Shown one piece after another: positions 1,252 to 60,869 of a stretch of 64,000 bases of DNA; the first letter of the stretch is position 1; each line of letters begins with the position of its first letter. Both the position numbers and the translations under genes were made by a program. The DNA lies in NCBI GenBank assembly GCA_976551045.1, contig CDPCPM010000125.1, positions 1,612,001 through 1,676,000 on the forward strand. Reading direction: 5' to 3'. Below the pieces are notes generated by a model that saw only the letters and a list, made by a program, of their open reading frames with translations, did not search any database and was not told where the DNA came from. This stretch comes from Glaucostegus cemiculus (Eukaryota).

Positions 1252-1278
1252 AAAATGACTTGGAGAGGAAAGAGACAG
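1252..1278 (+). CDS. Coiled-coil micro-exon, 27 nt: (E)NDLERKET
   Basis: ctctcttgttgcag|AAAATGACTTGGAGAGGAAAGAGACAG|gtaact; first residue depends on the upstream exon. Confidence 0.8.
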
Positions 1279-1779
1279 GTAACTGAGTCAATATCATTCT
1301 CTGTTGTCCCGTCAAAACATGAACTGTTGCGATTGGAAATGACGCGGTCCAGCCTTCATAAGAGGCACATAAGTGTACTGACCACAGGAGCCGATAGGAG
1401 ACTGTATATCGTCAGCTTCCTCTCAGTCTTCCCGATGTCTGCAAGGCAAAGGTCGCGACCATGATACAGTCCACATTGAATGCTTTTCAGCTTAAGTGAC
1501 AAAAGAGAAGGTCCGCCATTCACAACTAAACGACCCACGCAATTGATACTGTGTTCTTAAGCATGACCACTCATTACCTGCCACATCGGATCACCGTGGA
1601 TTCAGTATATACCATTTGGAAAATGCATCACATTTATTTGTCACCACTACAGCCTGTCACAAATCCTAATTATCTGTCACATAGCATTCTGACAGAGAGA
1701 TATATCAGTACTTACTTCTTGTTCCTGTTAGAATAAAAGGCAAGGTTAACAGATTTCTCGAACCTTGGTTATCGAGGGA

Positions 1780-3770
1780 GATTGAGACACTGATAAAGAA
1801 AACGAAAGTGGCGCACATAAGGTATAGGCAAGTTAGGATCAAATGGGGTGCTTGAGCAGTTTAAGAAATGAAAAGTAACACTTAAGAAAGAAATCAGGAG
1901 GGCAAAATCAGGTCATGACCTTGCTCTGGCAGACAGGGTGAATGAGAATCTCAAGGGTTTCTAAAACTAAATTAAGGTCAAAAGGATTGCGAGGGACAAA
2001 ACTGGCTCTCTTGAAGATCAACGTCGTCTTCTATACATGGAGCAGAGAGAAATGGGAGAGATCTTAAATGAATGTTTTGCATCCGCATTTACTCTGGAGA
2101 CGGACTTAGAGACTATAAAACTGAAGCAAAAGAATAGTGAGATCATGGATCTATCTGGATTAAGGAGGAGGAGGTGCTGGTTGCCTTGAGGCGAATTAAG
2201 GGAGATAACTCCCCGGGGCTTGACAAGGCGTCTCCTCGGACCTTGTGGGAGACGAGTGCAGAAATTGCAGGGGCACTGGCAGAGATATTTATAACGGCCT
2301 TAGCCACGGGTGAGATGCAAAAGACGAGATTAACTGATGTTGCTCCGTTGTTCAAGAAAGGTTCTAATAATAAGACGGGAAATTATAGGCCGGTGAACCT
2401 GACGTCAGTCCTGGGTAAATTATTGGAAGGTATTCTAAGGGACAGGATAAGATCCAAGTACTTATTTGGATAGACAGGGCCTGATAAGGAATAGTCAACA
2501 TGGCAGTGGTAAGTCATTTGCAACCCATCTTATGGAGATTTTATGACAAGGTCACCATGAAGGTCAATGAGGGAAAGGCAGAAGAAATTGTTTGCATGCA
2601 CTTTAGCAAGGCCTTCGACAAAGTCCCACATGGGAGGCTGGTCCAGAAGGTTAAGTCGCTTGGCACTCAAGATGAAGTAATCATTTGGATTCAACATTGG
2701 TTTAGCGGGAGAAACCAGAGAGTAGGAGTAGATGGTTGTCTCTCTGACTGGAGGCCTGTGTATAGTGGTGTGCCTTAGGGATTGGTGCTGGGTCCGTTAT
2801 TGTTTATCATCTATATTAATGATATAGATAAAAACGTGGCAAACTGGATCAGCAAAAGTGCGGATGACACCAAGATCGGGGGTGTAGTGAACAGCGAGGG
2901 AGGTTATCAAAGCTTGCAGCGTGATCTTGACCAGCTAATTAAATGGGCTGAGCAATTTCAGATGGAATGTAATTCAGACACTTATGAGATTTGCTCGTTA
3001 GGAGCACAAACCTGTGTAAGACTTACACAAAGAATAGTCTGAGGTGTGCGATAGAACAAAGGGACCTAGAAATACAGATCCATATTCCTTGGAAGTGGCA
3101 TCACAGGCAGATAGGGACGTAAGGAGAGCGCTTGGCAGTTTGACCTTCATAAATCAGGACATCGAGTACAGAAGTCGGGATGCTATGTTGAAGTTGTACA
3201 AGACGTTGGTGAAGCCATAATTAGAGTATTGTGTGCAGTTCTGGTCACCTACCTATAGGAAAGGTATCAATAAGCTTGAAAGAGTGCAGAGAAAACTACA
3301 AGGATGTTGCCGGGGCTTGAGGACCTGAGTTATAGGGAAAGGTTGAATAGGTAAAACATTTATTCCCTGGAGCGCAGGAGAATGAGGAGAGGCCTTACAG
3401 AGGTATACAAAATTATGAGGGGTATAGAAAGGGTGAATGCATGCAAGCTTATTCCTATAAGGTTGGGTGCGATGGGAACTAGAGAACATAGGTATAGAGT
3501 GAAAGGTGAAATATTTAAGGGGAATCTGAGGGGAAGCGTCTTTACTCAGAGAGTGGTGCGAGTGTGGAATGAGCTGCCAGCAGAAGTGGTAGATGCGGGT
3601 TCAGTTGTAACATTTAAGAGAAGTTTGAGTAGGTCCATGGATGGGAGGGGTTTGGGGAGATATGCTCCCGGTGCAGGTAGATTGAACTGGGCAGAAGATC
3701 AGGCGGCATGGACTATATGGACCGAAGGGCCTGTTTCTGTGCTATGATACTCTATGACTCTTTGACTCCT
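1780..3770 (+). mobile_element. CR1-family LINE, 5'-truncated, disrupted RT ORF2 to 3' end
   Basis: ORF pieces GNYRPVNLTSVLGKLLE, FSKAFDKVPH, LGPLLFIIYIND, SADDTKIGG, FTQRVVRVWNELP; short-repeat tail (ctctatgactct). Confidence 0.95.
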
Positions 3771-4262
3771 CTTTATGCCTAACCTTTACTGCTTCATACT
3801 AAACAGCACTTCGTAAGTATCTTCAGGAAAAGGGTTCCAGCTTTTCAAGAAGATAACATTACTGCCTCCAACAGACTACCACGGATAACAAGGACAGCTG
3901 GCCTTTCCAGTGAATGCGTCATCCTGCAAATCCCTAAACAAAGAATAGTAAAATAGAAAAAAATAGTAAAAGCATAATATACCCATAGAACTTCCAAGCT
4001 GACGGGAAAGGAACGTCTTTCACTCAGGCAGCTTTTTACTTATAGGAACAGGTGAGTTTGAAAATAATGGCAGAACAATTTAACCTGGAGCCAATACCAA
4101 TGTAGAAGTGTAGTGAACATCTGTCATCGTTAACTGCAATGAGATGGAATATGCGGAGAAATGAACAACTATAACCTTCTCTGATGTGATTTTTAAGGGG
4201 AAAGCTCTGTGGGCAAAGATATTCCAATCACAACAAAAATTGCTGCTGTTATATTTGTTTAG

Positions 4263-4298
4263 AACTTGTAAAACTGAAGAAATCGTTGCTGCTTGCAG
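4263..4298 (+). CDS. Micro-exon, 36 nt: ELVKLKKSLLLA
   Basis: atatttgtttag|AACTTG...CTTGCAG|gtaagg. Confidence 0.8.
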
Positions 4299-6469
4299 GT
4301 AAGGCATGAAAAGTTGGTATTTTCTTCACTATTAGATGACAGGAACAATGAAGATAGACTGAAATTGAGATATAAGGCTCATCACATACAATGCACGTAC
4401 TGACATCTCATCTAACATTCCTTCACATTAGGTAAGACACCAGATGGCTGATACGCCCAATGTGAATGAAAACTCAAGATAATCAGGTGTTGTTCTTGAA
4501 TCACTCCAAGAATTGAGTATTAACAGTAATGAATGTCTCCCCAGGGAATTATTTAGGGACGGTAGGACAGTAGGGTATCTCCTTAAAACTACATCTCATA
4601 TATACGCGAGAGATTCACTTGTACTATTTGAAGAGATGGAGAAACATCTTTGTTGTTATGGCCTTCATGACACATTAATGAAACACATTCTGAGATCATC
4701 ATGTTGTCGAAACTTATGGGCAAGCTATTGCTATGAACCCCATGACACGCGGCAGAAGGTCGTATTTATCTGCAACGCGTTTGCATTTATTTTTCATATG
4801 CACCTTCTGACAATTAAGATGAAGTAAATTAGGTTGTATTCGATTAACATACTATTACTGTTTCAGTAGAACAGATTCCTAGACTGTCGAAGTGAAAAAC
4901 ATGCATGTAACGGCGCGTCCCCAGAAAAAGTACTTCCATGCCATTTCGTATAACATGCAAAATAATTTAGTTATTACCTGATCGAAACCCTGACTGGAAG
5001 GCGAGAAATTGACCACTGCGCCTCTTTTCATATCACTTGATTCTTCAACAAATGTTCTGTGCTTCTGCAGAAGGCAGATTTTATTGCTCAGATGTTGAAG
5101 AGTTGTTTATAATACACAATTATAGTGAAAAATACGTCGATTTCACTGAGTTCATAAGCTGTGAGCCATTCGACAGGGGTGTGGAGAGGGTTCCGAACGA
5201 AAACGAGAAACACGCGAGCGAGAAACTAACGATTTGTATCTGCCTCGTTCATTTAACCTCCAGACCATTTGTTCGCTTCCCTTAAAGGTATAATGTGCCC
5301 CCGTTCAAACGTATACGAGGAACCTATTGAATAATCAGTGTGGTTTACCAGTTCTGCTCCCTGTCAGTTTAAATCTACAACAAAACTTGATTTTTTTAAA
5401 ACAAAACTGCTTTTCTTTCCATTCTCATGTGCAGATACGTCGTTTCTAGAATAAAAACGGCAATTTCAAAGTAGTTGGTTTTCCCAAAATAGAGCATGGT
5501 AACGTCGTAAATTGCCTTAATAATCACAGGAAAAGACGAAAATTATAATAATACAATAATTATTATGATGGCAAGAGGAACGAAAGTCCGTAGTTATTAT
5601 ATTTAAAGCTACTTTAGTGTATTTTCATGTATTTAACGTCATAAAACAAGGACTTTCCGTCCTTCTAACCTTTGCCAGCTCTCAGAACATTCGTATCAGT
5701 CCTATTCCTTCAACTGTCTCCCTGACATGTCTATTAACTCCTCCCTGATCTTCTCACCGTCCGTAAATACAAGGTACAAAGTTCATTGACTAATGAACAT
5801 ATGAGCACGTCTTTAGGCTGTGAGAAGAAACCGAAGCATGCGAGAAAAACACACGCGGTCAATGTAAGGACATGATACATTTGTTTCCTTGTTACTATTC
5901 GTCTGCTCATATAACTGTTCTGTGATTTTAGACATTAATAAGAAGTGCAGTGTAGACGGTAGGTACATCTCCGCGCATAGTTTACGAACCCCTTTTAGCT
6001 TTACATTTAAAACGTCAAGAAAACTGCCTTTCATATTTCTATAGAGCTTTCTATCTTTAGTTAATGAAATGCATCTTCGCGAAGCTGCTTACCTGACGAC
6101 CGAGGAGCTGTTGCCCCCATGTTGCCTCTTATCAAACATTCCCTTTGTGGTTTTTTTTTACAAGATCAAAACATAAGAGTGATCAATTGTTATTTCCATA
6201 TTCTTACTCCTCAGATCCAGATGATACTCCAAGAGTTAGCGGATTTCATCCAGAAGCACTTTTTCTTTTCATTATTTCTCCAACAACATAGATGGAAGCC
6301 GTTCGTTCCATCAGTCTATGCCGCCGCTCAGAGCACTCATCCGTCCACATTCCACACTTATTTCACTGTAACCTATTCTCTCTCACATGCAATTCACTCC
6401 ACCCCCGCCGCCCCCCAGTTCTTCGACCATCTAACGTCAGTGAAGCAATTTACAGTAGTCTATTTACAC

Positions 6470-6585
6470 AGCAACAAACAGTATTTGGGACGTGGGAGGA
6501 AACACAGGGATCAAAGGAACCTCACGCAATCACAGAGAAACTTCACACACACAACTGCCGAGGTCATGATAGAATCTGGACATGA
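6470..6585 (-). mobile_element. Degenerate V-SINE (HE1-like) fragment
   Basis: gtgggaggaaac...aggaacctcacgca...gagaaacttcacaca resembles the reverse complement of the V-SINE core. Confidence 0.5.
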
Positions 6586-7170
6586 TCTTATCCGCAATAA
6601 ACACGGCCAAACATTTGAAGTATTTGACATTTCAGCTAAGTGAACAATACTGCCGTCCTTAAAAATGAATACAGTACTAATGATCAGTGTGGAAGCAGGC
6701 GTTATCCCCACAGGCCTTCGACATTTCTGTCATTCACTGACCACCTGGCAACGTTTATCCTACTGCGCTTCTGCGGATGCTCGGAAGTTCACTACATTTA
6801 AGGATGTTCAAAGCATGGATACATTTCTCGACTATGTGCTAGGAAATGTTACGAAGCTAAACGATTGGCCTAGACCTTAATAAATGCTGGAGTAGGCTCG
6901 GAAACCCGACAGGCCCATGCCTACGATTCCTGGTAAGCTTCGTTCTAAGATGGGATCCTAGGGATATCAAAAACATTTAGGTTGTAAAATACTTTTTCCA
7001 CAGCACTCTGAGAATGGCAAACCACATCCGCTCTCATGTAGTATGAGAACATATATATCCTATGTTTAATACGTTTTAAAGTATTTCATGTTATCGGCAA
7101 GCATTCTGGTTATTATGATCAATAGTGAAAAACAGTATTTCTTCAGTTGTCGCTTGGTTTCACGTTGCAG

Positions 7171-7197
7171 AAGAAGAAGTGCGTGAAAAGGATGCAG
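7171..7197 (+). CDS. Micro-exon, 27 nt: EEEVREKDA
   Basis: tttcacgttgcag|AAGAAGAAGTGCGTGAAAAGGATGCAG|gtattg; similar to exon 25250-25276. Confidence 0.8.
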
Positions 7198-9290
7198 GTA
7201 TTGTATCGTGTGAAAAGAAAGCTACAAAGTTCCAATCCACGGCATGCAAAATAAATTTCGGATGGGACAACACTGGGCCACAGCAAAGACGATCAATGCT
7301 CGTCGCTTCTCATCGGTTCCCAGTTGTTTAAGTTAATGACATTTTAATTACACGTTAGTGAGCCTGTCAATTTGCAGTCCCAATCAAAGGTTCATGTCCA
7401 GTTGCAAATTCTGTCAATTCGATAATAGTATTAACTGATTCTTGCCAACCCTATGCTAGAAATATATGCAAATAATATTCACACAAATTGCCTCACTCAG
7501 CTTTTAAGGACCTTCACAAAGAGGATGATACGAAGAAAGTTAAAAAAAATGTATTATCAGTATGCTCTTATCTGTGACTCCTGCCTTTTAAAATAGCATT
7601 ACTGTTTCCGTTTATCGTCACCCTTCAGAAGTATGAGTCTTAAATTTCAATAAAAAGATAAAATCTCGGAAATACAACAGGTCAGGTAACAACTTTGGAG
7701 AGAGAGAGAAATTGCAGTTCTTAGGTCAATGGCATTTCATGAGATCCGGGCAGATTTCGAAAATAGGTATGTTTGAGTTTCGAGGTAGTGAGAGGGGTGG
7801 CGAGAACAAGCGAAATATCAATTACAGGGTGGCGAAAAGGAACAAGTGGATGACAAGATTGGTGTCAACTCATAGAGCGTGATGGAGTCTTGGGAATGGC
7901 AGGTAATACATCTGGAGGAGGTGTAAGTAAAGAGAGGTCACTGAGAATAGAGGAAAGGGACAAAAGAACAAACAATGTTGCAATTGCGAAATGCTGAAGA
8001 AAGCATCTACTGGAAATCTAAACTAAAGGAGAGGCTGGGAAACGTCAGCAAGTCAGGCAACATCTATGGAGAAACTGAGTTAATGTCAGTTACGTCAAAT
8101 TTGACTCAAGAACGGAAAAGCAAAAAAAATGCAGATGCTAGAAATCTGACAGTAAAAACGAAAAACGCTGGAAACATCACCATACCAGACAGCATCCAAA
8201 CTGGGAGATGTGGAGCCAAACGCTTATATCGTTAACCCCCGTCCCCATCAGGAAATACCACTAGGCTGAAGCAACAGCCATACCATCTTTGCCACAGATA
8301 CCACCCGACAACCCACCACCCCACCCCAAGGACCTCTAGCGTTCTCTGATCATGTATGACCCTTCGCTGGGCCTTAAATTGTATAATCCAATAATCATAC
8401 CCATTACAATCTTGGTAATCCAAATTACCCTTTTAATTTCTGCCACTTTCATACTGTTTCCTGGTACAAGAACATGAACTGTCCATTATAGGGATTTGAT
8501 ATCCTAGCATTACGACAACAAAGAAGCTTTGATGGGGAAATGTTTCTGATATTCAGCATTGTAAAAGGTTGCACTTATCGCTTTTGGTTACATTTTCCAA
8601 AGCATCATGGATACAGTCCCAGGCACACCGCGCCTGATGGTGGCATCGTTGAAGTTGATGGATATGATGGAGGGTGATTGGTTGAAATGAGATGGAGGGT
8701 GATTGGAGACTGCTGAGTTGGATGTTGAGGACAAGAAGTCCCATATTCTTCTTCTTGTTAAGAGCAAAGATAAAACCAGAAGATTGGGAAATGATGGGCG
8801 CATGGAGGAGGAGCCACCGTTAAGGGGGAAAAGGAAGGAATCTTAGAAGCAGATATGATGGAACCGGAGCAACTGGGAAAATTGAATCACGTCATCACGG
8901 AAAGCAATGTGGAAGGAGACATATTCAAAATAAAAATGGGATCTGTGACCAGTCAATCGATTTTGTTCACGATCCTGTCCACTCAGATGGGGATACAGCA
9001 GTCAAGGAAGGCAACAGGGGAGTTAATGATACTCCTTGTGTAAGTAAGAAAAAGGTGAAGCTAGGCAATAAAATCCAGAAGAAGTGCATCTAGAATAATC
9101 TTCCATCGCGATTTTGATTGCCTATCCCCAGAATAAAACTGGTAGCATTTGTTGGATGAAGAACAAAGACGGGTAATTGAAATAGAACTAAACTGTACAG
9201 TTTAATTAGACACGAAAGAAATTTAAGAGCCCAAATGATCTTGTTCTGTTTCTAACGTATGCCTAAAGACCTTTCTTCTTTCAATTTCAG

Positions 9291-9326
9291 AAATCACAGC
9301 ATTAAAAAGAAAGCTGCTAGAAACAG
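9291..9326 (+). CDS. Micro-exon, 36 nt: EITALKRKLLET
   Basis: ctttcttctttcaatttcag|AAATCAC...GAAACAG|gtcggg; strong acceptor, weaker donor, fits consensus. Confidence 0.8.
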
Positions 9327-9649
9327 GTCGGGAGAAAGAAATACTAATATTTTCAACCATCAAAGTATATGTACAAGTGTAGTCAGTCATATTTTACAAA
9401 TGCATTGTTTGCTGTTCTTCTCAAGTGATCGCACTCACCAGCATTCGGTCATTCAGATGAAGTGAGTTGGATCGCGTTGTTGAGCAGAGGGAGATTCTCT
9501 TGAGAAGCAACCGATAGAAGGAGAAACCCGGCGAATTTCACCGTAGTGCCACTTCCGTACTTTATCCATAACAGCTCCTTGCCTTTTTGAAATGATGGAC
9601 AAACTGGAACCTGCAGCGTACAGTCTGCGATCTGGTAATTGGCGGAGAA

Positions 9650-10075
9650 GTGTCGGCTAACTTTCCCCTCCCGCACTATCTCGATCTGCATATCACCCAC
9701 ACATTCCTCCCTCTAGTTCCCCTGATCATCCCTTTATTTCATGGTCCACTCTCCTCGCTTAGCAGATTCCATTTTCTACAGTCCTTCGTCATTTCCACCT
9801 GTCATCTCCCAAATTCTTATATCAATCCGACTCCGCACTCTACCAGCTGCCTATCTTCTCCCTTTCTCACCTGTATCCACCTATTATCCGTCAGCTCTCG
9901 CTCCACCCCCACCCGTTTATATTGGCTTCTCTCCTATTTCTTTTCGATCCTTAGGCAGGGTCTCGACCAGAAACGTCAACTCTCCATTTCCCATCATAAA
10001 TGCTGCCTGACAGACTGCATTTTGTGTGTTACTCCAGACTACCAATATCTGCAGTCTTTCTTGTGTCTCTACTGA
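9650..10075 (+). mobile_element. Penelope-like 3'/pseudo-LTR fragment
   Basis: Pyrimidine-rich tract followed by agggtctcgaccagaaacgtc...tgctgcctgac...gcattttgtgtgtt; the motif recurs several times in the window. Confidence 0.55.
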
Positions 10076-10689
10076 AGGCTAACTGCAGTTTAGGTGCAAG
10101 TGCGCATCACGCTTCTGCACCTGTATCAGAAATCGTGGACAAAATGGTGGACAGTTGCATGAATATCTGATTTTCTGCACTACCATTTAATTCATTATTG
10201 AGCTCAATTTTATTTTCTCGCGCGTTGCTGAGTGCCCGGTTCAATTTTAATGTTGCTTCTCGATTCTACAAGAAAATGAGTCACTAACATTCATTTAAAT
10301 TAAAGGTTTCGTTGGCAATTTTAAGTTTGGCTTATTTCAATATCTACCCGAAATTTCGCGTTGTGTTGAATGAAATAATAATTGTGAATAATCTTAATGA
10401 AAGTAAAACAATTTAATGCTTGCAATTATTTCCCATTGTTTAATTGTCTCTGAAAATCAATGACGTGGAAAGAATTATAAAGCACTTCTGACACCACAAG
10501 CTTCCCGAACGGCATCAGGGTTGTCCACAGAGGCATCACTCACAGCCCGCTGCGCCTTGGTGAGGAGGCCGCAACGAAACTATAGCGCCCCGTTGATCAG
10601 GTCAATCCAGCTTCCCATCATTCAGATTTACATTAGCTTCGGCTCCCACACCAGAACTAGCACAAGTATAATAACACAGAGGAAAAGTT

Positions 10690-12495
10690 TTCATAATTAT
10701 ATTAATTGAAAATGTGTGGCTAACGTGAACGTTGGTCCCTTGGAAGATGAGAAAGGGGAATTGGCATTGAGTAAGGTGGAAATGGCAGAAACCTTGAGTG
10801 ACTATTTTGTGTCGGTGCTCAAAATTAAGGACATGTCTAACATGCCAAAGGAGAGCTGTTATGTATGTGATGGGAGTTCGGGACCTCGATACAATGGCTG
10901 CCACTAAAGATGTAATAACGAACAACTAGTGGGCCTAAAGGTAGACAAATCTCCTGGTCCCGATGGGATGCATCCTTGCGTACTGGAAGAAATGGCAGAA
11001 TTTGTAGTGGAGGCGTTTGTGATAATTTACCAAAATTCTCTGGACGCTGGGCAGGTCCCGGCGATTGAAAGACAGTGAACGTCACTCCACTGTTTATCAA
11101 AAAGAATGTAGGCAAAAGGCACGTAACCGAAGGCCAGTTAGATTGTCGTCTGTCGTCGGGAAAATGCTTGAAACTATCATTAAGAAAGAAATAACGAGAC
11201 ATCTGGATTGAAGTGGTTCCACCAGGCAGACACAACATGGGTCCAGAAGGGCAGGTCCTGTTTGACAAATTTTCTAGAGTCCTTTGAGGATATAATGAAT
11301 GCACTGGATAGAGGGGACCAGGTGGATGTTGCATACTTGGATTTTCAGAAGGCATTTGATAAGGTGCCGCATAAAAGACATCCATAAGTTAAGGATGAAT
11401 GGTGTTGGGGATAACGTATTAGCATGGATATAGAACTGGTTAACCAAAAGAAGGCAGAGCATTGAGATACCTGCGTTTTTCTCTGGTTGACAAGCAGTGG
11501 TGAGCGGGATGTCACAGGGGTCAGTGCTAGGCCCGCAACTGTTTACGATATAGATCAATGATTTGGAAGAGAGGACGGAGTATAGCATATCTAAGTTTGC
11601 TGATGACATCAAAGTGAGTGGAAAAGCAAATTGAGCAAAGGATGTGGAGAGTCTGCAGAAGGATATAGATAGTTTAAGTGAGTGAGCAAGGGTCTGGCAC
11701 ATGGGACTACGGTGTTGGTAAATACGAGATCATCTACTTTTGAAAGAAAAATAGAATATCTGATTATTTAAATAGTGAAAGATGGCAGAATACTGTTGTG
11801 CAGAGGGACCTGGGAGTGCTTGTGCATGAATTGCAAAAGTTTGGTTTTCAGGTGCAAGAGGTTATCAAGAAATCAAATGGAATGTTGGCCATCATTGCTG
11901 GAGGGATTGACTTTAAAATCAGGGAGTTTATGCTGCAACTGTACTGGTGAAGCCGCACCTGGAGTATTGCGTGCATTTCTGGTATTACTTGAGGAACGAT
12001 GGACTGGCTTTAGAGACGGTGCAGGGGAGGTTTAACAGGTTCATTCTGGAGAGGAGACTGAAGAGAGATTGAGTCGCTGAAACTATACTCTCTGGGATTC
12101 GGGAGAATGACGGGATCTTACAGAAACATATAAATTATGAAAGGGACAGATAATGGAGAGGAACGAAAGTTGGTTTCACTAGTAGCTGAAACTAGAACCA
12201 GGGGGGCCTAGCCTCAAGATTTGAGGTAATAGATTCAGGACAGAGATGAGGAAAAACTTTTTTCCCAGGGAGTTGTGAATCTGTGGAATTCTCTGCCCAG
12301 GGAAGCGGTAGAGGCTACCTCGTTAAATATATATTAAGACAGACTTCGATTTTTGCATTGTAGCGCAATTTAGGGTTATGAGGGAAAAGGCAAGTATGTG
12401 GATCTGAGTCCACCCCCAGATCGGCCATGATCTTATTGAATGGCCCAGCAAGTTCAACGGGCTAATGGCCTACTCCAGCTCCTGTTTCTTATGTC
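10690..12495 (+). mobile_element. CR1-family LINE, truncated, disrupted RT
   Basis: Conceptual DKSPGPDGMHP, YLDFQKAFDKVPH, SQGSVLGPQLF, SKFADD; CR1-type 3' end (cctactccagctcctgtttcttatgt). Confidence 0.93.
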
Positions 12496-49359: not shown

Positions 49360-49386
49360 GAGAAGTGTTGCGCCAGCAGGAGAGAG
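49360..49386 (+). CDS. Micro-exon, 27 nt: GEVLRQQER
   Basis: tttgctctgacacacag|GAGAAGTGTTGCGCCAGCAGGAGAGAG|gtaact. Confidence 0.78.
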
Positions 49387-50174: not shown

Positions 50175-50310
50175 GTGGAGACAACAGAGGCTGCAGATGC
50201 TGAAATCTGGAACAAAAATATGAACTGCGAGAGAAACTCGGCAGGTCACGCAGCATCTGTGGAGGCAAAGAGATGGTCGATATTTCGGGTCAAGACCCTG
50301 CATCAGGGCA
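50175..50310 (-). mobile_element. Penelope-like pseudo-LTR fragment with degenerate minimal hammerhead core
   Basis: Reverse complement cctgatgcagggtcttgacccgaaatatcgac...gatgctgcgtgacctgccgagtttc. Confidence 0.6.
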
Positions 50311-51308: not shown

Positions 51309-52130
51309 TGTTACGAAACCAGCAACAAAAGAAGCACACCAATTCATACTTCAGTGTTAAAACTACTTTATTAATAACTACATCCGATAATACGTAAAAT
51401 AAGAATAAAAAGTTAGTATATTAGTACACAGTAAAATGTTAGAATCTTAAACTATAACCCCAAAACTACTCGTCGTGTGTGTGCGGCAAGTTCCTAAACT
51501 CCAAGTCCAGGAATTAGTTCTTAAAGTTCAGTTCAATAAGCCGTAAGATGACACGAATAAAGGCTTCTTCACAAGCACTGTCCATCGAAGACAAAACATA
51601 GATATAGAGAGAGATTAGAGAGGAATCACGAAATCCGAATGTTCCACTCGAAACTCAAACGACACTTCAGGGCTTACTCGGTAGTGACTTTCTCACCCTG
51701 AAAACTCCTTGATCGTGACTGTCCATGCAAATACCTGTGTTCTTCTACAGGTTACCGACAAAGTGAATTCGTCACTTTGTTCCACAGTATCTGCCACTCT
51801 GAAGAGCATCCAAAATGTGGTTATCCACGCAAACACCTGTGTCCTACAGGTTTCCGACAAAGTGAACTCCACTGGACTACTCCAGAAATCCATCCACGGA
51901 TTTTAGTGACAAACACAGTTACTGTCCTTCATCCATCGACAGAAACAAAACAGGCTGCTATCTCTCCTTCTTCTCTCTTTCCATCTGTCTGTCTCGCTCT
52001 CTCTTATCTTTTTCTTTCTTGTAATGACCTCATCACGTTAGTCTTATCTTCTGTTGACGTAATACGTTGCACACACACACAATGCCCCATCTTAAAGGGA
52101 TATTTGCCTATAGTAAGCTACTTCGTAACA
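51309..52130 (-). mobile_element. Solo LTR (Gypsy/ERV-like), 822 bp, 4-bp TSD CTGG
   Basis: ctgg|TGTTACGAA...TTCGTAACA|ctgg; 9-bp terminal inverted repeat; minus-strand AATAAA at 51367-51372; internal direct repeat. Confidence 0.88.
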
Positions 52131-52361
52131 CTGGGCGCTACCGTATAAACTCAGCGAATTGAGCCCATTTAAGATTCAGAAATTTGTGACAAAACTTCAA
52201 AAAATCTTAATTGCGCATCATGTTAAAGAAGAACACGTTACAATTGAAGACAGGTGAGAAAACGGGGAGAAGAACCAGAAACCATTCAACGAAATTTTAC
52301 CCGCAGTTCTTATTTCAGGTACTATTTATTTGCTCTGCTCACCACACTGATCTCTCTGCAG

Positions 52362-52397
52362 AGATAGCGAGGTTGAAGAATGATCTTCAAGCGGCAG
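52362..52397 (+). CDS. Micro-exon, 36 nt: EIARLKNDLQAA
   Basis: ctgatctctctgcag|AGATAGCG...GCGGCAG|gtgagc. Confidence 0.85.
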
Positions 52398-55060
52398 GTG
52401 AGCGATAAACTAGAAATGTACTTTTATTTGTCCGCTTTAAATTATTAAATTATTACTTTGCTGTTGTTAGGGATCAAATTTAAATGCTCACAACCTATTT
52501 TGTCTCCGGCATTTAAGGCATCAATGAATACCTTCTACCTCTCTCTTGTTTCTGACAATTCTTTGAAAAATTCCACAATTGTAACACAACTGTTTCAGTC
52601 CAGCTTCAGCAGGATATTACCATGTTATTTTCTGGCAGGTCCTTGCACAAGCACTGCCGCCTTGTGCAAGGAGCTGCCAGAAATCAGCTTCTGTCTGGGG
52701 GGAAAGCCCCCGACCAATTCCTCAATTCTTCCACGTCATGGCATTGCCCATATATTTGTGTTGCAATGTTTCGGTAGGTCTCAGTTTCCCATCTTTCTGT
52801 GTCAGTAGCCGTGGATGTTTTTTTCTGATGTAATGTTTGAAACGACGATAGTTTTGAAATGTTACTTTACGTCTTTCGAAGCTATACTAGAATTGCAACC
52901 CTGATAATTTTGCTTGCTTTTACTGTTGAGTTTTGATGATTTACAGACCGTATTTAAAATCCTCAAGATGTTCTTCGTTCTGGATTTTATTTATTCTGTT
53001 CCCTGATAAGAAGGAGGATGAAGGTTCGTCGGGGATAGATAGGAATGCAGATTTGAACAGCCATGATCCTGTTGATGATAGTGCAAGATCGAGGGAGAGA
53101 TTTCTCTCTATCTCTAAAGACAGAACAAAAGTTTGAGGTTAATTGCTTTGCCGCTTTTTTTGTTTCCAATAATACATTCTCCTCCTTGTGACTGAAAGGA
53201 AACTCCGCAATATTATTACTAATATGGTATGGCAACTCAATTTATGGACTAAAGTCTCTCGTGACTCTAATTGTACATTCATTGCATGTGTACCTATTTC
53301 CCTGTTTAATTCCAAACCCTCTTGAGCTAGAGCTGTTTGGGGGTCATAGGCAACTCCACCAGCTTCAGCTGCCCATTGCTGTTTCTAATCTCCTATCGCA
53401 CAGATTTCCACGTCACGGTCTGTGCATAAACCAGGAGAGTTTGTGGTTGAGAACAACAAACAATTCGAAAGAAAAATGATCTGTTGACTTCAATTGAAAG
53501 ATGATTTGTACACAGACAAAAGCCTGCTCATTGATATTGTATAGCACCCTGGCGATGTTGTATCTGAAATTGTTTACAGATCTGGTTCTCCCTGCGTAAA
53601 GGTTATGCTTGCTATAAAGGGATAAAAACAAAGGTTCACAAGATTTATTCCTGGACTGGGTGGATTGACTTTGAAGAATGATTACGTCAACACTGCATAT
53701 ACTTCCCTTCAACTCTGGAGTTTGATATTTCTCAAATTGGCCTTCGGATGGAAAGTGTAACATTGATGTAAGCCAAGTAGCTGGTTGGTGAGCGATGCCG
53801 GATGGAAGCTTACAAAGAGAGAAGGGGTGGACTCAAAGACCACGGACAAATCGGATGCGATTTTGAAAATAGCAGAAAGACACTGACCTGGTCACAGTTT
53901 TGTTGCGAGTTGCCATAGCCTCCGTGGGACGTCACAAGAAAAAACATTGGTGATTGGTGGGTGTTCTTTTTCAGTCTCCTCTGATTGAAGAGATTTAAGT
54001 TGCAGACTTTTGTTAAATCCAATCCAATTAATTAAGCAGAGAGAGATGACTGATCACGTAATATGCTGAGGCTTCAACCTGTGGGTACTGGTGGACCCCA
54101 CTGTGGATCACCGTGACAATATCTGCACATAGCGGCCCCAGGATTTTCGGCTCAGGATCGATGAGACAGAGTCCGGGATTCAGACACTGAACGCATCATG
54201 GAGGGTGAGAATTACTTCGATATTGTGCTACGTGAGAAAGAGATTAATTAATTTACATTTGATCAATGGTCAAAGAGGCATGTGGAAGCATCCAGAGGAC
54301 AGTTCTTGAGGGGCTCAGCTCTTCTCCTTGTCAAAGAGATCCGAGGTTCTTGCTCCTTGTTTGAACATGGGTGGATGTGAGACTGACAATAACGTTATGA
54401 CAAAGCGAACCATTCGACTGTAGTAGAAAAAAATAAGGTAGTAAGAGGCAATATTACTGTTCAGGGAACTGATCCCTGTAGCAAAGATAGAGAAATCTCT
54501 GTTGACTCTCCATTGATGGGATTAGAAGTATTTCTTCTAGTCTAGAAAATAACGGAGAAAGAGAGCGTATATCTGAGGGAAAAAACATCACTTTTAAACA
54601 TATCGACCCTTACTTGAGATTTACCAAAAGGTGTCACATTGACGAAGTATTTAAATGACTCTCTTTAAATGGGCAGAGACATCTGTTCTTTGTTAGCTCT
54701 AAATGGTTACTCAAAAACCGAAATCCGCTCCCCGAGCCCTATCATAAACTGAATTTTCTTGAGCTCATTTCAACTCAATATTTCGTCTAAAGGCACATGA
54801 CGGAAAGCAATGACGTTTGAACTTCTGCTTAAAATGACAGTCCATTCCACCAGTTTGAGTCCTGATATGATATTGGCTGTATATTTCCCACTATCGCTCC
54901 TTTGATTCAACACGGGAAATGTTACGTGCAAAGGAGGCAGGTAACTATGTCCTACACATGAAGGTTTGGCATATGAAGAGACACCAAGTCACTCCCTCGC
55001 AGCATTTAATACAGATGATTTCCATACAATCAAAATAGCATAATTTTGCCTTCCTCCTAG

Positions 55061-55087
55061 AGCTCAAGCAGAAGAACAAAATGGACG
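55061..55087 (+). CDS. Micro-exon, 27 nt: ELKQKNKMD
   Basis: ttttgccttcctcctag|AGCTCAAGCAGAAGAACAAAATGGACG|gtaagt. Confidence 0.82.
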
Positions 55088-55329
55088 GTAAGTGGATGAA
55101 ATGATTCTGATGAAGATGAGTTATCATATAGTTCAGTCATGGAATACATGCACGCAATTGATATTTGCATGGTTTGCGCAGCTGATTTAGATGCACCTAA
55201 GCTAAAACAAGGGAATGTAAAAAGGCAAAAAAAAATCTATAATATTATTGCAATGTGTACGAAATGCAAAGCCAGTTATTACTAATACATGTTGTATCAA
55301 TATTGGCGAAATGTACAAGCAAGTCATAT

Positions 55330-55490
55330 ATGCCATATGTTACGTGTGAGAGGAAGCCGGAACATCGGAGCAAAGCCACTTGGTTACGGGAACAAGCCAT
55401 AAACTCCATATCGACAACAACCGAGATCAGAATCGAACCTGGGTTGCTGGAGTTTTGCGGCAGCACTATCTGCTGCCCCACTGTGCCCCA
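55330..55490 (-). mobile_element. Degenerate V-SINE
   Basis: gagaggaagccggaacatcggagcaaagccac (core) and atcgaacctgggttgctgg...cactatctgctgccccactgtgcc (tRNA-derived head). Confidence 0.7.
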
Positions 55491-57454
55491 GTGGTGTTGG
55501 TGGTGGACTATAGTATGTTATATTTGTCTAAGCTGCCGCAGCTATCACTACGCTCCATGTGGAGATCACTGCCAGGAGCCAGTCTTGCTAGCGAATTGTT
55601 GCACAGGTCACATGCCATTTAATCAGTGGTAGCATACGAAAAATCATTTATTTCACTGAGGCTTCTCGGCCTGTGAATTAAAAGGGGAATGGGAAGGAAG
55701 AGTTACATAATCTTTTTACTACTTTCCGATGCTTTTTATTTGTTAGCGTTTCGGGTTAATTTCACCTCTTTTATTTTGTTCATGTTTGAATTATTTAATT
55801 CTTTAATCCTCTGTTAATGGTTTTAAAGTGCCCTTAATGTCACATACACTAAGGAAAAACCTTCTAAACTCCTTATTCAGGGTAATTTTTCGCCCCGACT
55901 TCACATTCTGTCAAAACTGCAAGAGGTATTTCGTGGTCTGGATCTTAGCGGCACAGCTCCTGGGCCTAGGTACTGCTGTGGGCTTATTTTTACCCTGTAC
56001 TTCAATGATCCAAAGGTCAAACGCTGTTCTATTTCCGTTTCCATTGATTATAACGTGGGTCGAATATGGACGGTAAGGGCTCAGAAGAATACTGCCCAGT
56101 TCTCACTTGGATATTGCAAATATTTTCTGCAAAACGTGCAAACCTTTTGATTGATTACGAACACCACACTTCAACAGAATGATTGAAGGTGAAACGTTGA
56201 TGCTCTGTGCACCAAATTTCTACATATCCCCTGTAACTATTTGAACGCTTTACTAAGGTTGCATTTCTCTAAGTGAACAGCCACTGCGGAGACATTTTGT
56301 GCACGTCTTTGGAATAGGATTTCTGCCGACAACCAAGGAGAGTCATTGCGCCAAGGATGACAGATGGTAACGCATTCCTAAACATCGCAAGGGTATGATC
56401 GGGTCGTGAATCATGCTCTCATTTCTCCACTTGAAGCGAATCTATTTTTCTGAACGTGCACCCCAACTTCAGAAGCTTCAGGAAACGTCTCATTTTGGTC
56501 CTTCTGTTACTAATTCTGAAATATCATATTCATGTAGAATTCCAGTTTGCAATTGGATCATCACATTTGTTATGATGCAAATGCTTTGGGTTTATTTGGA
56601 ACGTATTAACATTGATTATCTGGTGGGACATGTAACAGTGGGTCAATATTGTAGCAAGACGATTTGCCAGCCAATTATCCAACTTTGACAATCCGTACAT
56701 TGTACATGCTTTCGCGCATGCCACAATAATGATTGAATTAAGCTCTCAAGGACAAACAGTCTTTGTATCGTCTGTTACAGAACAGAAGGATTGAGTTATC
56801 TAATTTAATTCATAACATTATCGACAGGAATTGTCATATTTAATGTCTGTGTTCTATGAAAACAAGACTGCCTGATCCGTGGTAGTTCCTCTTCATCTGT
56901 GTGTGATTCCAGACTCTTTGGTAGTTGTTGTTAAATAAAACAAACAAATTCTGTATTAATAGTACTAACATAATATCCTTCACTCCTGCGTGATGTCCCA
57001 GGGCGTTTATTTGGAGTGTTCTCGCTGTTACAGGATATCTGGCAACAGGTTGTATAGATTTTACAGAAACAGCGGGTGATAATCAATCGACAATCCGTTT
57101 GAGTGGTGCTGCCTGAAGAAAATAATTCAAGTAGGAACTGCAGCGAATTTCCCCGCCCTCCCGTGAAATATTTATATGTGGAAATTTCGCAGACAATTGA
57201 GAAGGAAGTCGCCAATTAGAAATTAACTCTGTATGCACACAATTTCCAATTCTATTTTGTCTCCATATTTAACTTAGGATCAGATATGAAATACCAGAGT
57301 TCCGTTGCATCTGAGGACATTGAGTCTAATACTAAAGTATTTAATTTGCATGTTTTTCTTGTTTTGTGGGAAAGAAAGGTAAATGACCAATACAAGTCTC
57401 CAAAAAGGCGAAAATAAAATGTCTCCTGGTTTTCATACTTACCTTTTTTTGCAG

Positions 57455-57490
57455 AATTGACAGAAATAAAGTTAGAAAGAAAAGAAAAAC
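57455..57490 (+). CDS. Micro-exon, 36 nt: ELTEIKLERKEK
   Basis: cttacc, T-run, gcag|AATTGACA...GAAAAAC|gtaagg. Confidence 0.8.
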
Positions 57491-57639
57491 GTAAGGGTTG
57501 AATTTCAATGCCAGCGTTTATTGAGAAGAACATATTAAAGAGAGCAATGTTTATCAGTTGCTTTATTTTATTTTAAGAATTGAGTCTTTGAGACCTTTAC
57601 GTCTTCTTGGATAGGGTCGACAGAGTCATTGTAATTTAC

Positions 57640-59060
57640 AAACCGGAAGTATGGCTAGGCTTCTTGAACCTTTTCAGCCACTCAACAAGATCATGTGTGA
57701 CCTGATATTGGCCTTCATTCCAATTGCTTTTATGTTCTCCATAATCCATGACATCCTACTGACCAAACCTCAGTCTTTCTTCCCCTGGAAGATATTCAAT
57801 TCATCAGCATCCACGGTACTCTGAAGTAGAGAATTCCAAAGACTTACAATATTCGTTTAATGAAAATATTTCTCTTCATTCTGAAATCATGACCATTTTT
57901 CTGGATTCGCCCAGCGTAAGGACATCCTCTCAGGTATCCATCGTATCAAGTTCTCACAGAACGCTATGTGTTCCAATTATTTTGGCACCAACTTTCTTCG
58001 AATTCTTCCGCTGTGTATATCCCCCCTTCAATGGGCATAACAAAATAACGTCCACAACTCTGCGTGTGGTCACACAATACGCAGTACATTTGTAGCGAGA
58101 CTGCTCTCTGCTATCCCTTCACAGTAAAACAGCATTCAGTTTCCCTCCTTAATTAGTTCTTCTGTTTGCATCTAACTTTGTGCTTCATGTTCGAAAGCAC
58201 CTAGTTCCCTGCCATGCAGAGGTCAGTAGTCTCTAACCATTTCAGCAAAATGCTGTTATTTCCGTTCTTCTTCCCAAAGACATATTTCCTACATTGTAGC
58301 CCCCCTGCCACTTTTTTGCACACTCTTTTTAACTGCTTGTGTCACTTTACAGACTCATTGTATTACCTTCACATTCGCCTTTCTTGGTGTTGTCACCATA
58401 TTTAGTGACAATATATTAAATCCATGCAACTGGCATTGATGTAGGTTGTACATTGTTGAAGGGTCACACTAATCCCCGCGGCATGCAATTATTGCATTTT
58501 GCCAATTTAAAAATGCTCTGTTTATCTTGACCCCCTTCCACACGAATGTTAATCACTTAATTTCCCCGGTCTACGTGGATGAAAGTCTCTCATGTTCACC
58601 AGACTGATTCCAGTGAGGCAGTGCTGACGTATGGAGAGACGTTGGCTCAATTGAACTTATATGTGCAGGAGTTTCGTAAAATGAGACGATATATTGAATC
58701 TTTGGCAATTCTAACAAGATTGGACAGACTAGATGCAAGGAGCATATTCCCGCTGGCGGGTGATTCCAGGACGTGAGTCACAGAATGAGGAAAAGGGCTA
58801 AGTCGTTTAAGAATGAGCTGAGGCAAACTTTCTTCTCTCTCCTCGGAAATTCTCTCCTATTGTAAACAATTGGATCCACATTAAATATATTCAATAAGGA
58901 GTTAGATTTTGATTTTAGGGCAAGGTTGATCAAGGGCTATAGGGAAAAACCAGAAACAGGATATTGAATTTAGTCATCAGCCATGACTGTATTGAATGCC
59001 AGAGCAGGATCGAAAGACCGAGCAGGCTACTCTGGATCATATTTCCATATTCCTATGTTT
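57640..59060. mobile_element. Two divergently oriented degenerate CR1 3' fragments (minus about 57640-58560, plus about 58590-59060)
   Basis: Plus ORF LTYGETLAQLNLYVQEFRKMR...LDRLDARSIFP; CR1 tails at both outer ends. Confidence 0.75.
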
Positions 59061-59299
59061 TTATTGTGTAATAAAACAATATATTTTGTGCGCCATTAAT
59101 TTCCTGATTTGTGTTACTGCGTCTCTGCTCTGATTCTGTTTGGTAGTACACTCTAATGTTTATACGCCCCATCCTTCCTTACCAGCTCTGGCTGCTATTG
59201 TTTTGTTCTTTCTATTTAACTTTTCAAATATAATAACTGTCACCGAATTCTCCACCATACTATTTAGTTTAAATACATATCCGCGGCAGTAGCTGAGGG

Positions 59300-60095
59300 A
59301 TTCATTAGGACAGCGGTCACAGATGGAGCCAAGTGAAACTTGTCCCAATAGAACAGCGCCATCTTTTCCCAGAACTGGTGCCACTGTCCTATCAATCGGA
59401 ACCGATTTGCCCCACACCAATCTTTGAGTTCTTCAATCTTATTCGTCCCGTGTCAATTAGGAATCAGGAGATCATTGGCCTCTGTGGTTCTGCTTTTTGA
59501 TTTTTTTTTTATTTGAATCCTCACTGCCGGTCTCCATTCAGTAGAAGGTCCTTTGATCTACATTTGCCATGAGTTCCGACGTGAACTATATCTGGTTATT
59601 TTTCTACCCACACCAAATTCCTCTCTGGTCCTGAAGAGATGTCCTTAACTGGTCTTTAAACAAGCCGGGAATGCAGCATAAGGAATTCTTGGTTGTGGCT
59701 GTAGGAAGCAGTACATACTAAATTTTATCTTCTATGACCACTCCATTCTCTTTCACCCCTCCATCTAGACTAACGTACTGTACCACAATGTCGTATTCAG
59801 TTTTCTCATCTGCCGTGCAGTCTCAGCCCGCATCGGCACAGGCTGTGAGAATCTCTAACCTGTTGGATGAATGCAAGAGCACGGCTCCTACAAAGCTACT
59901 TTCTGGATCCACATGCCTGCCTGACTCGTGAAGGTGCCATCCTGTCCCTTTTCTCTGACCAGTCGTACAGTGGTTGACCTAAGTGCTGCGATTGCCCCGG
60001 AATAAATCTCGCCCTCTATGATGAATCACAATATCCCAATCACGGACGCCAGCTCATCGACTCTTGAGTTGAAGTTCCTCGCGTTGTGGTCACGT
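59300..60095 (-). mobile_element. CR1 ORF1 (SGNH-esterase-like) remnant
   Basis: Minus strand about 59430-59320 reads LKDWCGANRFRLIGQWHQFWEKMALFYWDKFHL, like the CR1 ORF1 esterase DxxHL block. Confidence 0.6.
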
Positions 60096-60099
60096 ATGT

Positions 60100-60440
60100 C
60101 GAACATAGAACGTCGAACAGTACAGCACAGGAACAGGCACTTCGGCCCACGGTGTCTGTGCCGAGGATGATGCCAAGTTTAACTTCTTCTACTTGCCTAT
60201 ATCCCTCAATTCCCTGCCTGTTCATGTGCCTGTTAACGTATCTGCCCTCACCACTTTCCCAGGCACCTAACACTCTCAGTGTTAAAAGCTTGCCTCGTAA
60301 TTCTCCTTTAAACTTTACTCCTTCGCCTTAAAACTATGCCCTCTAGTATCTGATATTTTCATCCTGGGGAAAACAGATTCTGACTGTCTATGCTTCTCAT
60401 AATTTCATATACTTATATCAGGTAGCCTCTCAGCCTCTGA
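60100..60440 (-). mobile_element. CR1 3' terminal fragment
   Basis: gaacatagaacgtcgaacagtacagcacaggaacaggcacttcggcccac tail. Confidence 0.8.
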
Positions 60441-60833
60441 TGCTGTTTATTTTTCCAGTATCCGTATTTTTGAGTCAACTGACTTCAATTAACCACTTGT
60501 ACAGGTTAACCGAATCCCTAGCAAATAAAAGACTATTTGTTTGCTATTTTGTATCACTAGCTACCTTAAAATGCTCTTGTAAGCCTACTTGCCCATTTTT
60601 CTTTATCAGGCATCTGGGCACGATGTTATTGTCTCCTCTTTTGCCTTGGTGATAATAGTTTCGAATTTTGAAACAGTGCGCTTTTTTTGCATGCCACAAC
60701 AAAGACATTAAATAATACCAAATTTCTGCGAAAATCGCACAAGCGAGCAATTCCATTATAGTTTCGTACTGAATCGTATGTTGCTTTTTAAGAGGAAATG
60801 TCATTGTCAGCTTTTTTCATCTTCTAATTTCAG

Positions 60834-60869
60834 AAATAGCTAAACTGAAGACTGACTTGGAAATGAAAG
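60834..60869 (+). CDS. Micro-exon, 36 nt: (Q/E)IAKLKTDLEMK
   Basis: tcatcttctaatttcag|AAATAGCT...AATGAAAG|gtacaa; fits the 36-nt consensus. Confidence 0.82.

Follow-up and report, generated by a model that had tools for sequence, protein, structure and literature searches.

A 460-kb array of in-frame micro-exons ending in a B30.2 exon in Glaucostegus cemiculus: a candidate gene for a long, soluble coiled-coil rod

The stretch of DNA analysed here (the window, 64,000 nt; Glaucostegus cemiculus, assembly GCA_976551045.1, contig CDPCPM010000125.1, positions 1,612,001-1,676,000 of the forward strand) forms over its whole length (1..64000, plus strand) the middle of one gene-sized array of micro-exons. 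Coordinates are given relative to the window, contig coordinates being obtained by adding 1,612,000, and negative values or values above 64,000 lie outside it. The original prediction, a hidden gene of at least 25 micro-exons, stands as regards the segments themselves, but the array to which they belong is about seven times larger than the window. Our recount returned the same 25 plus-strand AG..GT segments, i.e. twelve of 27, eleven of 36 and two of 24 nt, which when joined give 768 nt in phase 1 with no stop; G ends 22 of the 25, AA or AG begins 19, and the exons make up 1.29% of the interval 1252-60869, in agreement with the low coding density first described. Exons of 27 nt belonging to class A lie at 1252..1278, 7171..7197, 22485..22511, 25250..25276, 29061..29087, 36365..36391 and 49360..49386, with other 27-nt exons at 17753..17779, 44047..44073 and 55061..55087; the 24-nt exons lie at 14109..14132 (a shortened class A) and 42209..42232. 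Those of 36 nt occupy 4263..4298, 9291..9326, 15825..15860, 18464..18499, 27773..27808, 33905..33940, 40117..40152, 47145..47180, 52362..52397, 57455..57490 and 60834..60869, of which 57455..57490 may instead be a 27-nt exon from an alternative acceptor at 57464, a product that fits the 9-residue pattern better. The high-confidence cut was passed by 23 of the 25 segments; the lower-scoring pair, at 5932..5958 and 23661..23687, was caught by a profile for a second class (class B) of 27-nt exon that stands in place of a 36-nt exon, and is assigned with lower confidence.

The array extends from about -358 kb to +101 kb (approximately 460 kb), and a profile scan identified within it 158 high-confidence micro-exons, all in phase 1 and free of stops, including 89 of 27 nt, 64 of 36 nt and one of 21 nt; no stop occurs in any of the 153 high-confidence exons of 27 or 36 nt. 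The bulk of the 158 lie between -358,157 and -1,048, and about ten more between 65,154 and 90,106, downstream of the window, all on the plus strand. The 27-nt penultimate exon (101,058-101,084, +) encodes the peptide WKKIINCK and is followed by a phase-1 terminal B30.2/PRY-SPRY exon (101,892-102,412, +) of 172 amino acids and a stop. At the other end, the first exon (36 nt, at -358,157, +) contains an in-frame ATG at -358,155 as candidate start; Met occurs at this position in 8% of 36-nt exons anyway, and there is no CpG island near the first exon, so that this 5' end is tentative. Overall, some 160 exon-like units of 27 and 36 nt share one frame leading to the B30.2 exon, typically across introns of about 2 kb (the longest reaching 14.8 kb), with a coding share of about 1.2%, or some 1,800 codons. 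Judged from sequence, these units are probably one gene, with a predicted spliced product of approximately 1,790 amino acids that would comprise a rod of about 1,600 residues, some 240 nm long, and a B30.2 head.

The minus-strand and randomised-sequence comparisons proposed as a check on the original prediction bear out the reality of the pattern. A profile trained on 88 exons, all outside the window, gave 22 matches above a 16-bit cut-off on the plus strand of the window and none on the minus strand. A coding-blind scan, which considered splice-site strength alone for candidates of 15 to 60 nt across the 460-kb span, returned 42 plus-strand candidates at each of the lengths 27 and 36 nt; no other length gave more than five, and the minus strand had only three and one, respectively. 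Among these 84 plus-strand candidates, phase 1 is stop-free in 82, phase 0 in 33 and phase 2 in 42; twelve lie in the window, whereas 30 Markov-simulated windows held 0.87 on average and never more than three. Pairwise identity among the 36-nt exons, which share a mean amino-acid identity of only 24%, is 0.45, 0.56 and 0.35 at the three codon positions, the order expected under protein-level constraint. Signs of recent duplication in the exon flanks are nearly absent, with one non-overlapping pair among the 158 exons.

The unit pattern proposed from the window holds across the whole gene, with hydrophobic residues at unit positions 4, 11, 14 and 18 in 93, 95, 90 and 90% of exons, Lys at position 7 in 74%, and Glu as the junction residue at 108 of 157 exon junctions. 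Hydrophobic periodicity is strongest at 3.50. The earlier proposal of a hidden and under-annotated coiled coil of 21-residue (9+12) units, built from phase-1 micro-exons, is supported. Each unit would span three heptads whose 'a' positions carry L, I/L and L and whose 'd' positions carry K, L and a small residue, and Glu at unit position 10 would pair with Lys or Arg at position 15 in the manner of a parallel dimer; the charge pairs at positions 10-15 are attractive in 37 of 59 units and repulsive in three. This salt-bridge argument is weakened since the splice-site sequence in part imposes the Glu at unit positions 1 and 10; Lys in the core, which is unusual, also counts against the rod model. 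The heptad register is continuous only over runs of at most 12 units; substitution of the second 27-nt class for a 36-nt exon would yield an 18-residue unit and a register shift. Two chains would be expected to pair into a parallel coiled coil of about 240 nm carrying two B30.2 heads at one end. An ESM Atlas search with the rod of the Narcine relative described below returned only generic coiled-coil matches, below 0.9.

Support for splicing comes from a paralogue on a second contig (C274), which has 25 exons scoring at least 15 bits and none on the opposite strand, the rod of 24-, 27- and 36-nt phase-1 exons being present in both genes. In a colinear chain, sixteen of its candidate exons align with the Narcine protein XP_069775384, with 99 of 133 residues identical and 12 of 15 junctions exactly in register; the chain scores 460, compared with 48-99 and no junction in register for four control stretches. 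RefSeq isoforms of the Narcine, Scyliorhinus and Callorhinchus members, for which exon structure is deduced from such isoform blocks only, differ by blocks of 9, 6, 9, 9 and 18 residues, and the 9-residue Narcine block corresponds to one 27-nt exon of the paralogue. This exon-by-exon match of the paralogue to a RefSeq ray protein supports micro-exon splicing and argues strongly that the exons of the giant array would join into one mRNA. A search of RNA sequencing runs with the B30.2 exon and its 3' flank listed no run, a result neutral as to expression. All units are in phase 1 and a multiple of three in length, so that the frame survives the gain, loss or skipping of any of them; the array would have grown by repeated tandem duplication of a 27+36-nt exon pair derived from butyrophilin-type tail exons.

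The terminal exon belongs among B30.2/PRY-SPRY domain proteins with a beta-sandwich fold. Pfam SPRY matches it above its cut-off (E 5.1e-16), the PRY model did not reach E 0.001, and a structural model (pLDDT 87) resembles TRIM7 and BTN3A1 (Foldseek E 3e-14, TM approximately 0.78). The best PDB match by sequence is BTN3A1 (E 1.6e-40, compared with 1.4e-33 for TRIM21), so that the comparison with butyrophilins and BG proteins drawn in the original prediction was the right lead, and the ESM Atlas places the domain in generic SPRY/butyrophilin clusters. The alternative comparison with a CD23-type lectin stalk fails, and a CD23/DC-SIGN-type lectin receptor was rejected, because the terminal exon encodes B30.2 where a C-type lectin domain would be expected. 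In a tree of 96 B30.2 rows (quick IQ-TREE search, SH-aLRT support only) the domain falls within a separate nine-row clade (SH-aLRT 100), apart from all 87 TRIM, BTN and unlabelled domains otherwise sampled; within it, the subgroup uniting the gene with skate, catshark and chimaera proteins has an SH-aLRT of only 86. Trp81, R83, R106 and K158 align with a Trp and with basic residues of BTN3A1, the latter being pocket residues there.

All named members of the clade come from chimaera, sharks and rays, i.e. XP_055510696 (Leucoraja, labelled 'TRIM69-like'), XP_038668997 and XP_038672306 (Scyliorhinus, 'TRIM39-like'), XP_042191566 (Callorhinchus, 'TRIM58'), XP_069775384 (Narcine, 'A33-like') and XP_078422387 (Cetorhinus). 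Despite these TRIM labels, RING or B-box domains were seen in none of the retrieved clade sequences. As in the array, these chondrichthyan coiled-coil and B30.2 models contain 9- and 12-residue units, with isoforms varying by single units; they differ from it in length, the named models having 175-460 amino acids against some 160 micro-exons in the giant gene. Word-limited, and hence weak, searches found no long member among proteins of 302-2,000 amino acids, none at E <= 1e-30 by profile among those of 806-2,300, and only two already known members in a profile search near the predicted length. The sole match of 302-2,000 amino acids, a Pristis two-TRIM fusion model (39% identical), is ordinary and was rejected as an orthologue. 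Among the papers returned by full-text literature searches, mostly outside subscription journals, none describes the family in its title or the beginning of its abstract.

On balance we slightly favour the reading that the 460-kb array and its B30.2 exon form what is likely one gene, encoding a soluble coiled-coil rod that would act as a long-reach cytoplasmic tether or adaptor. The B30.2 heads would bind a partner protein, which the rod would space or cross-link to cytoskeleton or membranes, solely by analogy with zipper protein, a soluble product derived from a BG tail that is reported in PMC4046983 to regulate actin-myosin interaction. Possible, but in our estimation unlikely, is that the same protein serves innate immunity as a sensor or decoy, its paired B30.2 domains recognising a ligand from a pathogen or a danger signal while the rod confers avidity or a lattice in the manner of TRIM coiled coils, but with no RING of its own. 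B30.2 is described as the module by which TRIM and BTN proteins bind ligands (PMC8813856, PMC7348870), and identity to the probable orthologues of only 38-51% would be more like that of a fast-evolving recognition domain than of a conserved scaffold, as would suit a sensor; the alignment of Trp81, R83, R106 and K158 with BTN3A1, whose W391 is named in PMC7348870, also lends itself to such a role. Against this, H351, given there as the key phosphoantigen residue, is replaced by Thr41, no effector domain was found, and the genome yielded just two members of the clade beside about 150 ordinary B30.2 exons, numbers more in keeping with a structural role than with an immune family in expansion.

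Somewhat less probable is that the array is real yet never yields one protein of 1,790 amino acids, with internal promoters or heavy exon skipping giving shorter rods, or with a separate 5' rod-only gene. The retrieved relatives, all of 129-460 amino acids and with several alternative starts, are consistent with shorter products, symmetric exons would permit any skipping, and introns reach 14.8 kb. However, strand, phase and unit style do not change along the 460 kb, the 814 kb examined contain one B30.2 exon only, and the model of the probable catshark orthologue has repeat-derived sequence near its start, so that its short length looks like an annotation failure.

We regard as improbable a membrane receptor of butyrophilin or BG type, with Ig and transmembrane exons situated over 190 kb upstream or so diverged as to escape detection and with the array as its giant cytoplasmic tail, even though heptads followed by B30.2 are the butyrophilin tail plan, BTN3A1 is the best PDB match, and about 16 hydrophobic residues open the skate model XP_055510696; these residues may stem from reading through the T-rich end of an intron. 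Inspection of the flanks for further domains, as proposed at the outset, yielded the B30.2 exon but neither Ig-V nor transmembrane exons in the 192 kb upstream. Ig-V was unmatched across 814 kb, this upstream stretch included, and a heuristic scan of the 192 kb (with no positive control) found no hydrophobic, transmembrane-like phase-1 exon of 60-200 nt. Among 18,348 open reading frames from 904 kb, Ig-V, RING and B-box were not found (best E 0.41; leave-one-out controls gave E <= 3e-25 for Ig-V, IgC had no profile of its own, and the RING and B-box profiles, from 47 and 29 segments, had no such control), and tblastn of 162 proteins against 814 kb matched the B30.2 exon and otherwise only repeat-derived or isolated weak segments. 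Two single-exon GPCR frames on the same strand, at -379 kb and -504 kb, would intervene, and neither Ig nor transmembrane segments occur in the models from Narcine, Scyliorhinus and Callorhinchus. The earlier suggestion of a receptor stalk or tail thus gives way to a soluble protein as more likely, the receptor reading being further disfavoured by the paralogue's ray orthologue, in which three residues precede the first matched micro-exon; accordingly, the predicted product is likely soluble, with apparently no membrane anchor. Finally, chance AG..GT matches, rejected as the array's origin on strand, length and phase statistics, or a decayed pseudogene are very improbable indeed, since stop-bearing look-alikes (two of 18 mid-score candidates, plus two more) are outweighed by the length spectrum, strand and phase bias, codon-position pattern, intact B30.2 exon and paralogue-to-RefSeq match.

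Whether the gene belongs to an ancient, unnamed chondrichthyan family of soluble, butyrophilin-derived 'molecular rulers', each a rod bearing a B30.2 head, with rod length set by micro-exon number (about 30 in one paralogue, about 165 here) and tuned by splicing, is in our judgement evenly balanced. If so, the giant member would rank with the most exon-rich genes of vertebrates and would escape current annotation almost entirely. The blind spot extends to its relatives, which appear in RefSeq as short 'TRIM-like' models with no RING or B-box. It would add to butyrophilins (short tail and B30.2) and BG (long tail, no B30.2) a third arrangement of butyrophilin parts, in which B30.2 follows a very long tail and a membrane anchor is apparently lacking. 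Cartilaginous fishes being the oldest jawed-vertebrate lineage, this bears on the origin of BG tails and on the 'orphan' B30.2 domains mentioned in PMC8813856. The locus also offers a natural test case for a spliceosome joining about 160 consecutive micro-exons across 2-kb introns.

A coiled coil followed by a PRY-SPRY fold is shared with TRIM proteins, whose coiled coil is antiparallel, encoded by few larger exons and short, in contrast to the very long rod here; TRIM identity was rejected, N-terminal RING and B-box not being found in 814 kb. Butyrophilins (BTN3A1, BTN2A1) likewise have heptads and then a terminal B30.2, and human BTN3A1 carries a stretch, WKKALFKP, before its B30.2 that resembles WKKIINCK. 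They are described as having IgV, IgC, a transmembrane segment and only few heptads (PMC4046983, PMC7348870, PMC8813856), whereas no IgV or transmembrane exon was found here within the 192 kb upstream, and the replacement of His351 by Thr41 sets the domain apart from a BTN3A1-type phosphoantigen sensor. In chicken BG genes, as reported in PMC4046983, the heptad tail is encoded by strings of 21-nt (sometimes 24-nt) exons, 13-36 per gene. A long heptad tail from many tiny exons of variable number is thus common to both, but exons here are of 27 and 36 nt and number about 160, and BG has a single Ig-V, a transmembrane segment and no B30.2, whereas here a B30.2 is present and no Ig or transmembrane exon was found. 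Enterophilin-1, a soluble guinea-pig protein with an extended leucine zipper and C-terminal B30.2 and with no RING or Ig, is mammalian and several times shorter than the predicted giant product. It interacts with sorting nexin 1 (cited in PMC13749957). The likeness is one of architecture, and convergence from butyrophilin tails is as likely as shared ancestry. The giant gene would be neither a TRIM nor a full butyrophilin and, by analogy, would work most like BG tails and enterophilin.

The micro-exon array is real. The 25 AG..GT segments originally predicted on the forward strand between 1252 and 60869 were reproduced exactly, as were their lengths (12 of 27 nt, 11 of 36 nt and 2 of 24 nt; 768 nt in total); on recount 22 of the 25 have a final G and 19 start with AA or AG, and in phase 1 all are stop-free, with a coding share of 1.29% of 1252-60869. 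The introns between them are vertebrate DNA containing observed sequences that we take to be CR1-type LINEs. Chance occurrence of this AG..GT pattern is excluded by four controls, i.e. the strand bias of profile matches, the length spectrum, the phase bias and simulated windows. A nucleotide profile built from 88 exons, all outside the window, gave 22 candidates above 16 bits on the forward strand of the window and none on the minus strand. Splice-site strength alone, scored with approximate matrices, yielded 42 candidates at each of the two lengths, 27 and 36 nt, over the 460-kb span of the array, with at most 5 for any remaining length in the 15-60 nt range and, on the minus strand, 3 (27 nt) and 1 (36 nt). 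Read in phase 1, 82 of the 84 lack a stop, compared with 33 when read in phase 0 and 42 in phase 2. The same measure gave 12 candidates in the window, against a mean of 0.87 and a maximum of 3 in 30 simulated windows.

When the examination is widened by 550 kb on the upstream side of the window and 200 kb on the downstream side, the array runs from -358,157 to 101,084 (window numbering, in which negative positions lie upstream of the window and those above 64,000 downstream). At a profile cut of 15 bits, 89 exons of 27 nt and 64 exons of 36 nt were kept (153 in all), every one free of stops, with one candidate at this level or above over 664 kb of minus strand; the 192 kb upstream of the array contain no comparable profile match on the forward strand (best 13.7 bits). 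Since a second-class 27-nt exon profile adds six stop-free candidates, and two with stops, the true micro-exon count is probably about 160-170. Our gene model, which takes in five further exons of different lengths and omits 18 mid-score candidates (two with stops), totals 159 exons and 5,366 nt, encoding a rod of 1,614 residues and a B30.2 domain, with a coding share of 1.17% over 460.6 kb and introns of median 2.2 kb (range 118-14,765 nt). The array is followed by a phase-1 terminal B30.2/PRY-SPRY exon on the forward strand at 101,892-102,412 (Pfam SPRY E 5e-16), whose modelled domain (pLDDT 87) matches TRIM7 and BTN3A1 in Foldseek with TM about 0.78. Stop-bearing 27-nt look-alikes at 37518-37544, -66,129 and -174,371 may be decayed exons, poison exons or noise. 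Introns and flanks also carry fragments that we presume to be LINE-like or LTR-retrotransposon-like, at 1,900-3,700 and 62,800-64,000 in the window and at about -154,000 to -151,000, -86,700 to -83,300 and -484,300 to -481,400 outside it.

Support for splicing is indirect, through a paralogue and RefSeq relatives, and for this gene splicing is predicted. The paralogue, a second gene of this type on another contig of the same genome (C274, 546,030-597,950, minus strand), has about 30 micro-exons alongside its B30.2 exon; upstream of the latter this gene's profile identifies 25 exons of 27/36 nt, with no stops and none on the other strand. Sixteen paralogue candidate exons chain in genomic order onto the Narcine RefSeq protein XP_069775384 (99 of 133 residues identical), and at 12 of the 15 junctions the matched segments are separated by precisely the one junction residue. 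This chain scored 460, whereas the four control stretches reached 48-99 with no junctions in register; the paralogue is probably the orthologue of XP_069775384, plus units absent from that model. RefSeq isoform models, which presumably rest on RNA-seq, differ from one another by blocks of 9 and 6 residues in Narcine, 9 and 18 in Scyliorhinus and 9 in Callorhinchus; in the paralogue a single 27-nt exon corresponds to the 9-residue Narcine block. At 67,730 and 68,018 this gene has neighbouring exons of 36 and 27 nt that align in register with two neighbouring units of a skate protein (identities 55% and 75%), although repeat similarity could give the same result. Splice-site peculiarities at 57455/57464, -280,532/-280,523, -71,073, -134,770 and 67,765 comprise tandem acceptors 9 nt apart and extended exons, by which three or four residues would be gained or lost, together with two GC-donor exons.

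The rod comprises 17.6% K, 17.2% E, 14.1% L and 0.2% P, and its hydrophobic periodicity is strongest at 3.50. Features proposed from the window for its 21-residue (9+12) unit hold across the whole gene: a hydrophobic residue occupies position 4 in 93% of exons, position 11 in 95% and positions 14 and 18 in 90% each, Lys occupies position 7 in 74%, and junction codons encode Glu in 108 of 157 cases. With 4/11/18 read as 'a' and 7/14/21 as 'd', position 10 falls at g and 15 at e'; the charges at 10/15 are opposite in 37 of 59 units and like in 3, and those at 3/8 opposite in 15 and like in 6, a pattern that would suit a parallel dimer, Glu at 10 being partly splice-site-favoured. Exons of 27 and 36 nt alternate at 117 of 157 steps (27 follows 27 at 28), and the heptad register is uninterrupted over runs of 8, 12 and 11 units mid-rod and shifts elsewhere, reflecting either genuine 18-residue units or missed exons. 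As a coiled coil rises ~0.148 nm per residue, the 1,614 residues give a predicted length of about 240 nm. The units are old, with low mutual identity (mean amino-acid identity 24% for 36-nt exons; only ten exon pairs at 75% nucleotide identity or more), and identities of 0.45/0.56/0.35 by codon position indicate a frame maintained under protein-level constraint. The clearest younger internal duplication is a 27-nt exon block at -349,561 to -289,643, in about three copies of 81-89% nucleotide identity.

Profiles for Ig-V, RING and B-box domains, built from fetched proteins, found none among 18,348 ORFs (best E 0.41; held-out Ig-V domains E <= 3e-25), and tblastn with 162 proteins matched the B30.2 exon only, other matches being repeat-derived or isolated and weak. 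In the 192 kb upstream of this gene no phase-1 exon resembling a transmembrane segment was detected; the paralogue has one candidate (with two donor choices) 21 kb upstream, without counterpart in the Narcine model, whose protein starts three residues ahead of the first matched paralogue exon. Upstream of the array are two alike, single-exon GPCR open frames on the forward strand (-379,036 to -378,137 and -504,114 to -503,182), presumably resembling GPR139-like receptors expanded in cartilaginous fishes. Because of these absences, the GPCR frames and the Narcine start, we favour a product that would be soluble and begin in or immediately before the array; a candidate start is the in-frame ATG at -358,155. 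Residues 67-117 of catshark XP_038668997 are repeat-derived, a sign of annotation losing the array. A single-exon Kv1 potassium channel gene (188,327-189,877; best match KCNA2, E 1.5e-266) lies 86 kb downstream on the same strand and is a usable synteny marker.

When the B30.2 domain was searched against 1.84 billion representatives, 8 of the 150 listed matches were looked up by name: six are relatives from Scyliorhinus (two genes), Leucoraja, Narcine, Callorhinchus and Cetorhinus, and the remaining two are an unnamed record and a teleost TRIM that is unrelated. A tree was built of 96 domains (quick search, midpoint root, multi-domain matches and partial domains outside the family excluded); in it this gene, the paralogue and seven database proteins, nine rows in all, lie together on one side of a long branch (SH-aLRT 100), and a profile from eight of the nine gave the held-out paralogue 246 bits and every other match at most 139. 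The paralogue clusters with the Narcine and one catshark protein; this gene lies beside skate, other catshark and chimaera proteins with weak support (86). Such placements point to a cartilaginous-fish host, probably a ray. These two are the family members found in this genome among the best 150 candidates per search. Ordinary B30.2 exons form dense clusters on four other contigs (C172, C200, C466 and C581; about 150 matches of 27-41% identity among those listed), a large, recently expanded TRIM/BTN-like repertoire; identical-scoring copies occur on C172 and C581, and further B30.2 exons at 788-872 kb on C274.

The product is predicted to dimerise as an extended parallel coiled coil, with both B30.2 heads at the same end. 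Exon symmetry would allow rod length to be altered one unit at a time, in evolution as well as by splicing. As to function, we lean towards a cytoplasmic tether or adaptor. Its B30.2 domain is only 38-51% identical to those of probable orthologues, and such fast evolution counts against this reading. An immune sensor seems less likely, given the few family copies found beside about 150 ordinary B30.2 exons, the failure to find an effector domain, and the precedent of a BG-derived zipper protein reported to act on actin-myosin (PMC4046983), all of which favour the tether or adaptor. With Thr in place of BTN3A1 residue H351, the domain is unlikely to sense phosphoantigens as its human counterpart does.

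A literature search of partial coverage brought up no description of this coiled-coil and B30.2 family, and within the DNA examined the gene does not qualify as a BTN, BG or TRIM member. It may be likened to the cytoplasmic tail of butyrophilin/BG proteins without the membrane anchorage and, in what we presume to be its working mode, to enterophilin-1. Whereas BG tails are encoded, according to PMC4046983, by 13-36 exons of 21 or 24 nt, this gene has about 160 exons of 27/36 nt and retains B30.2.
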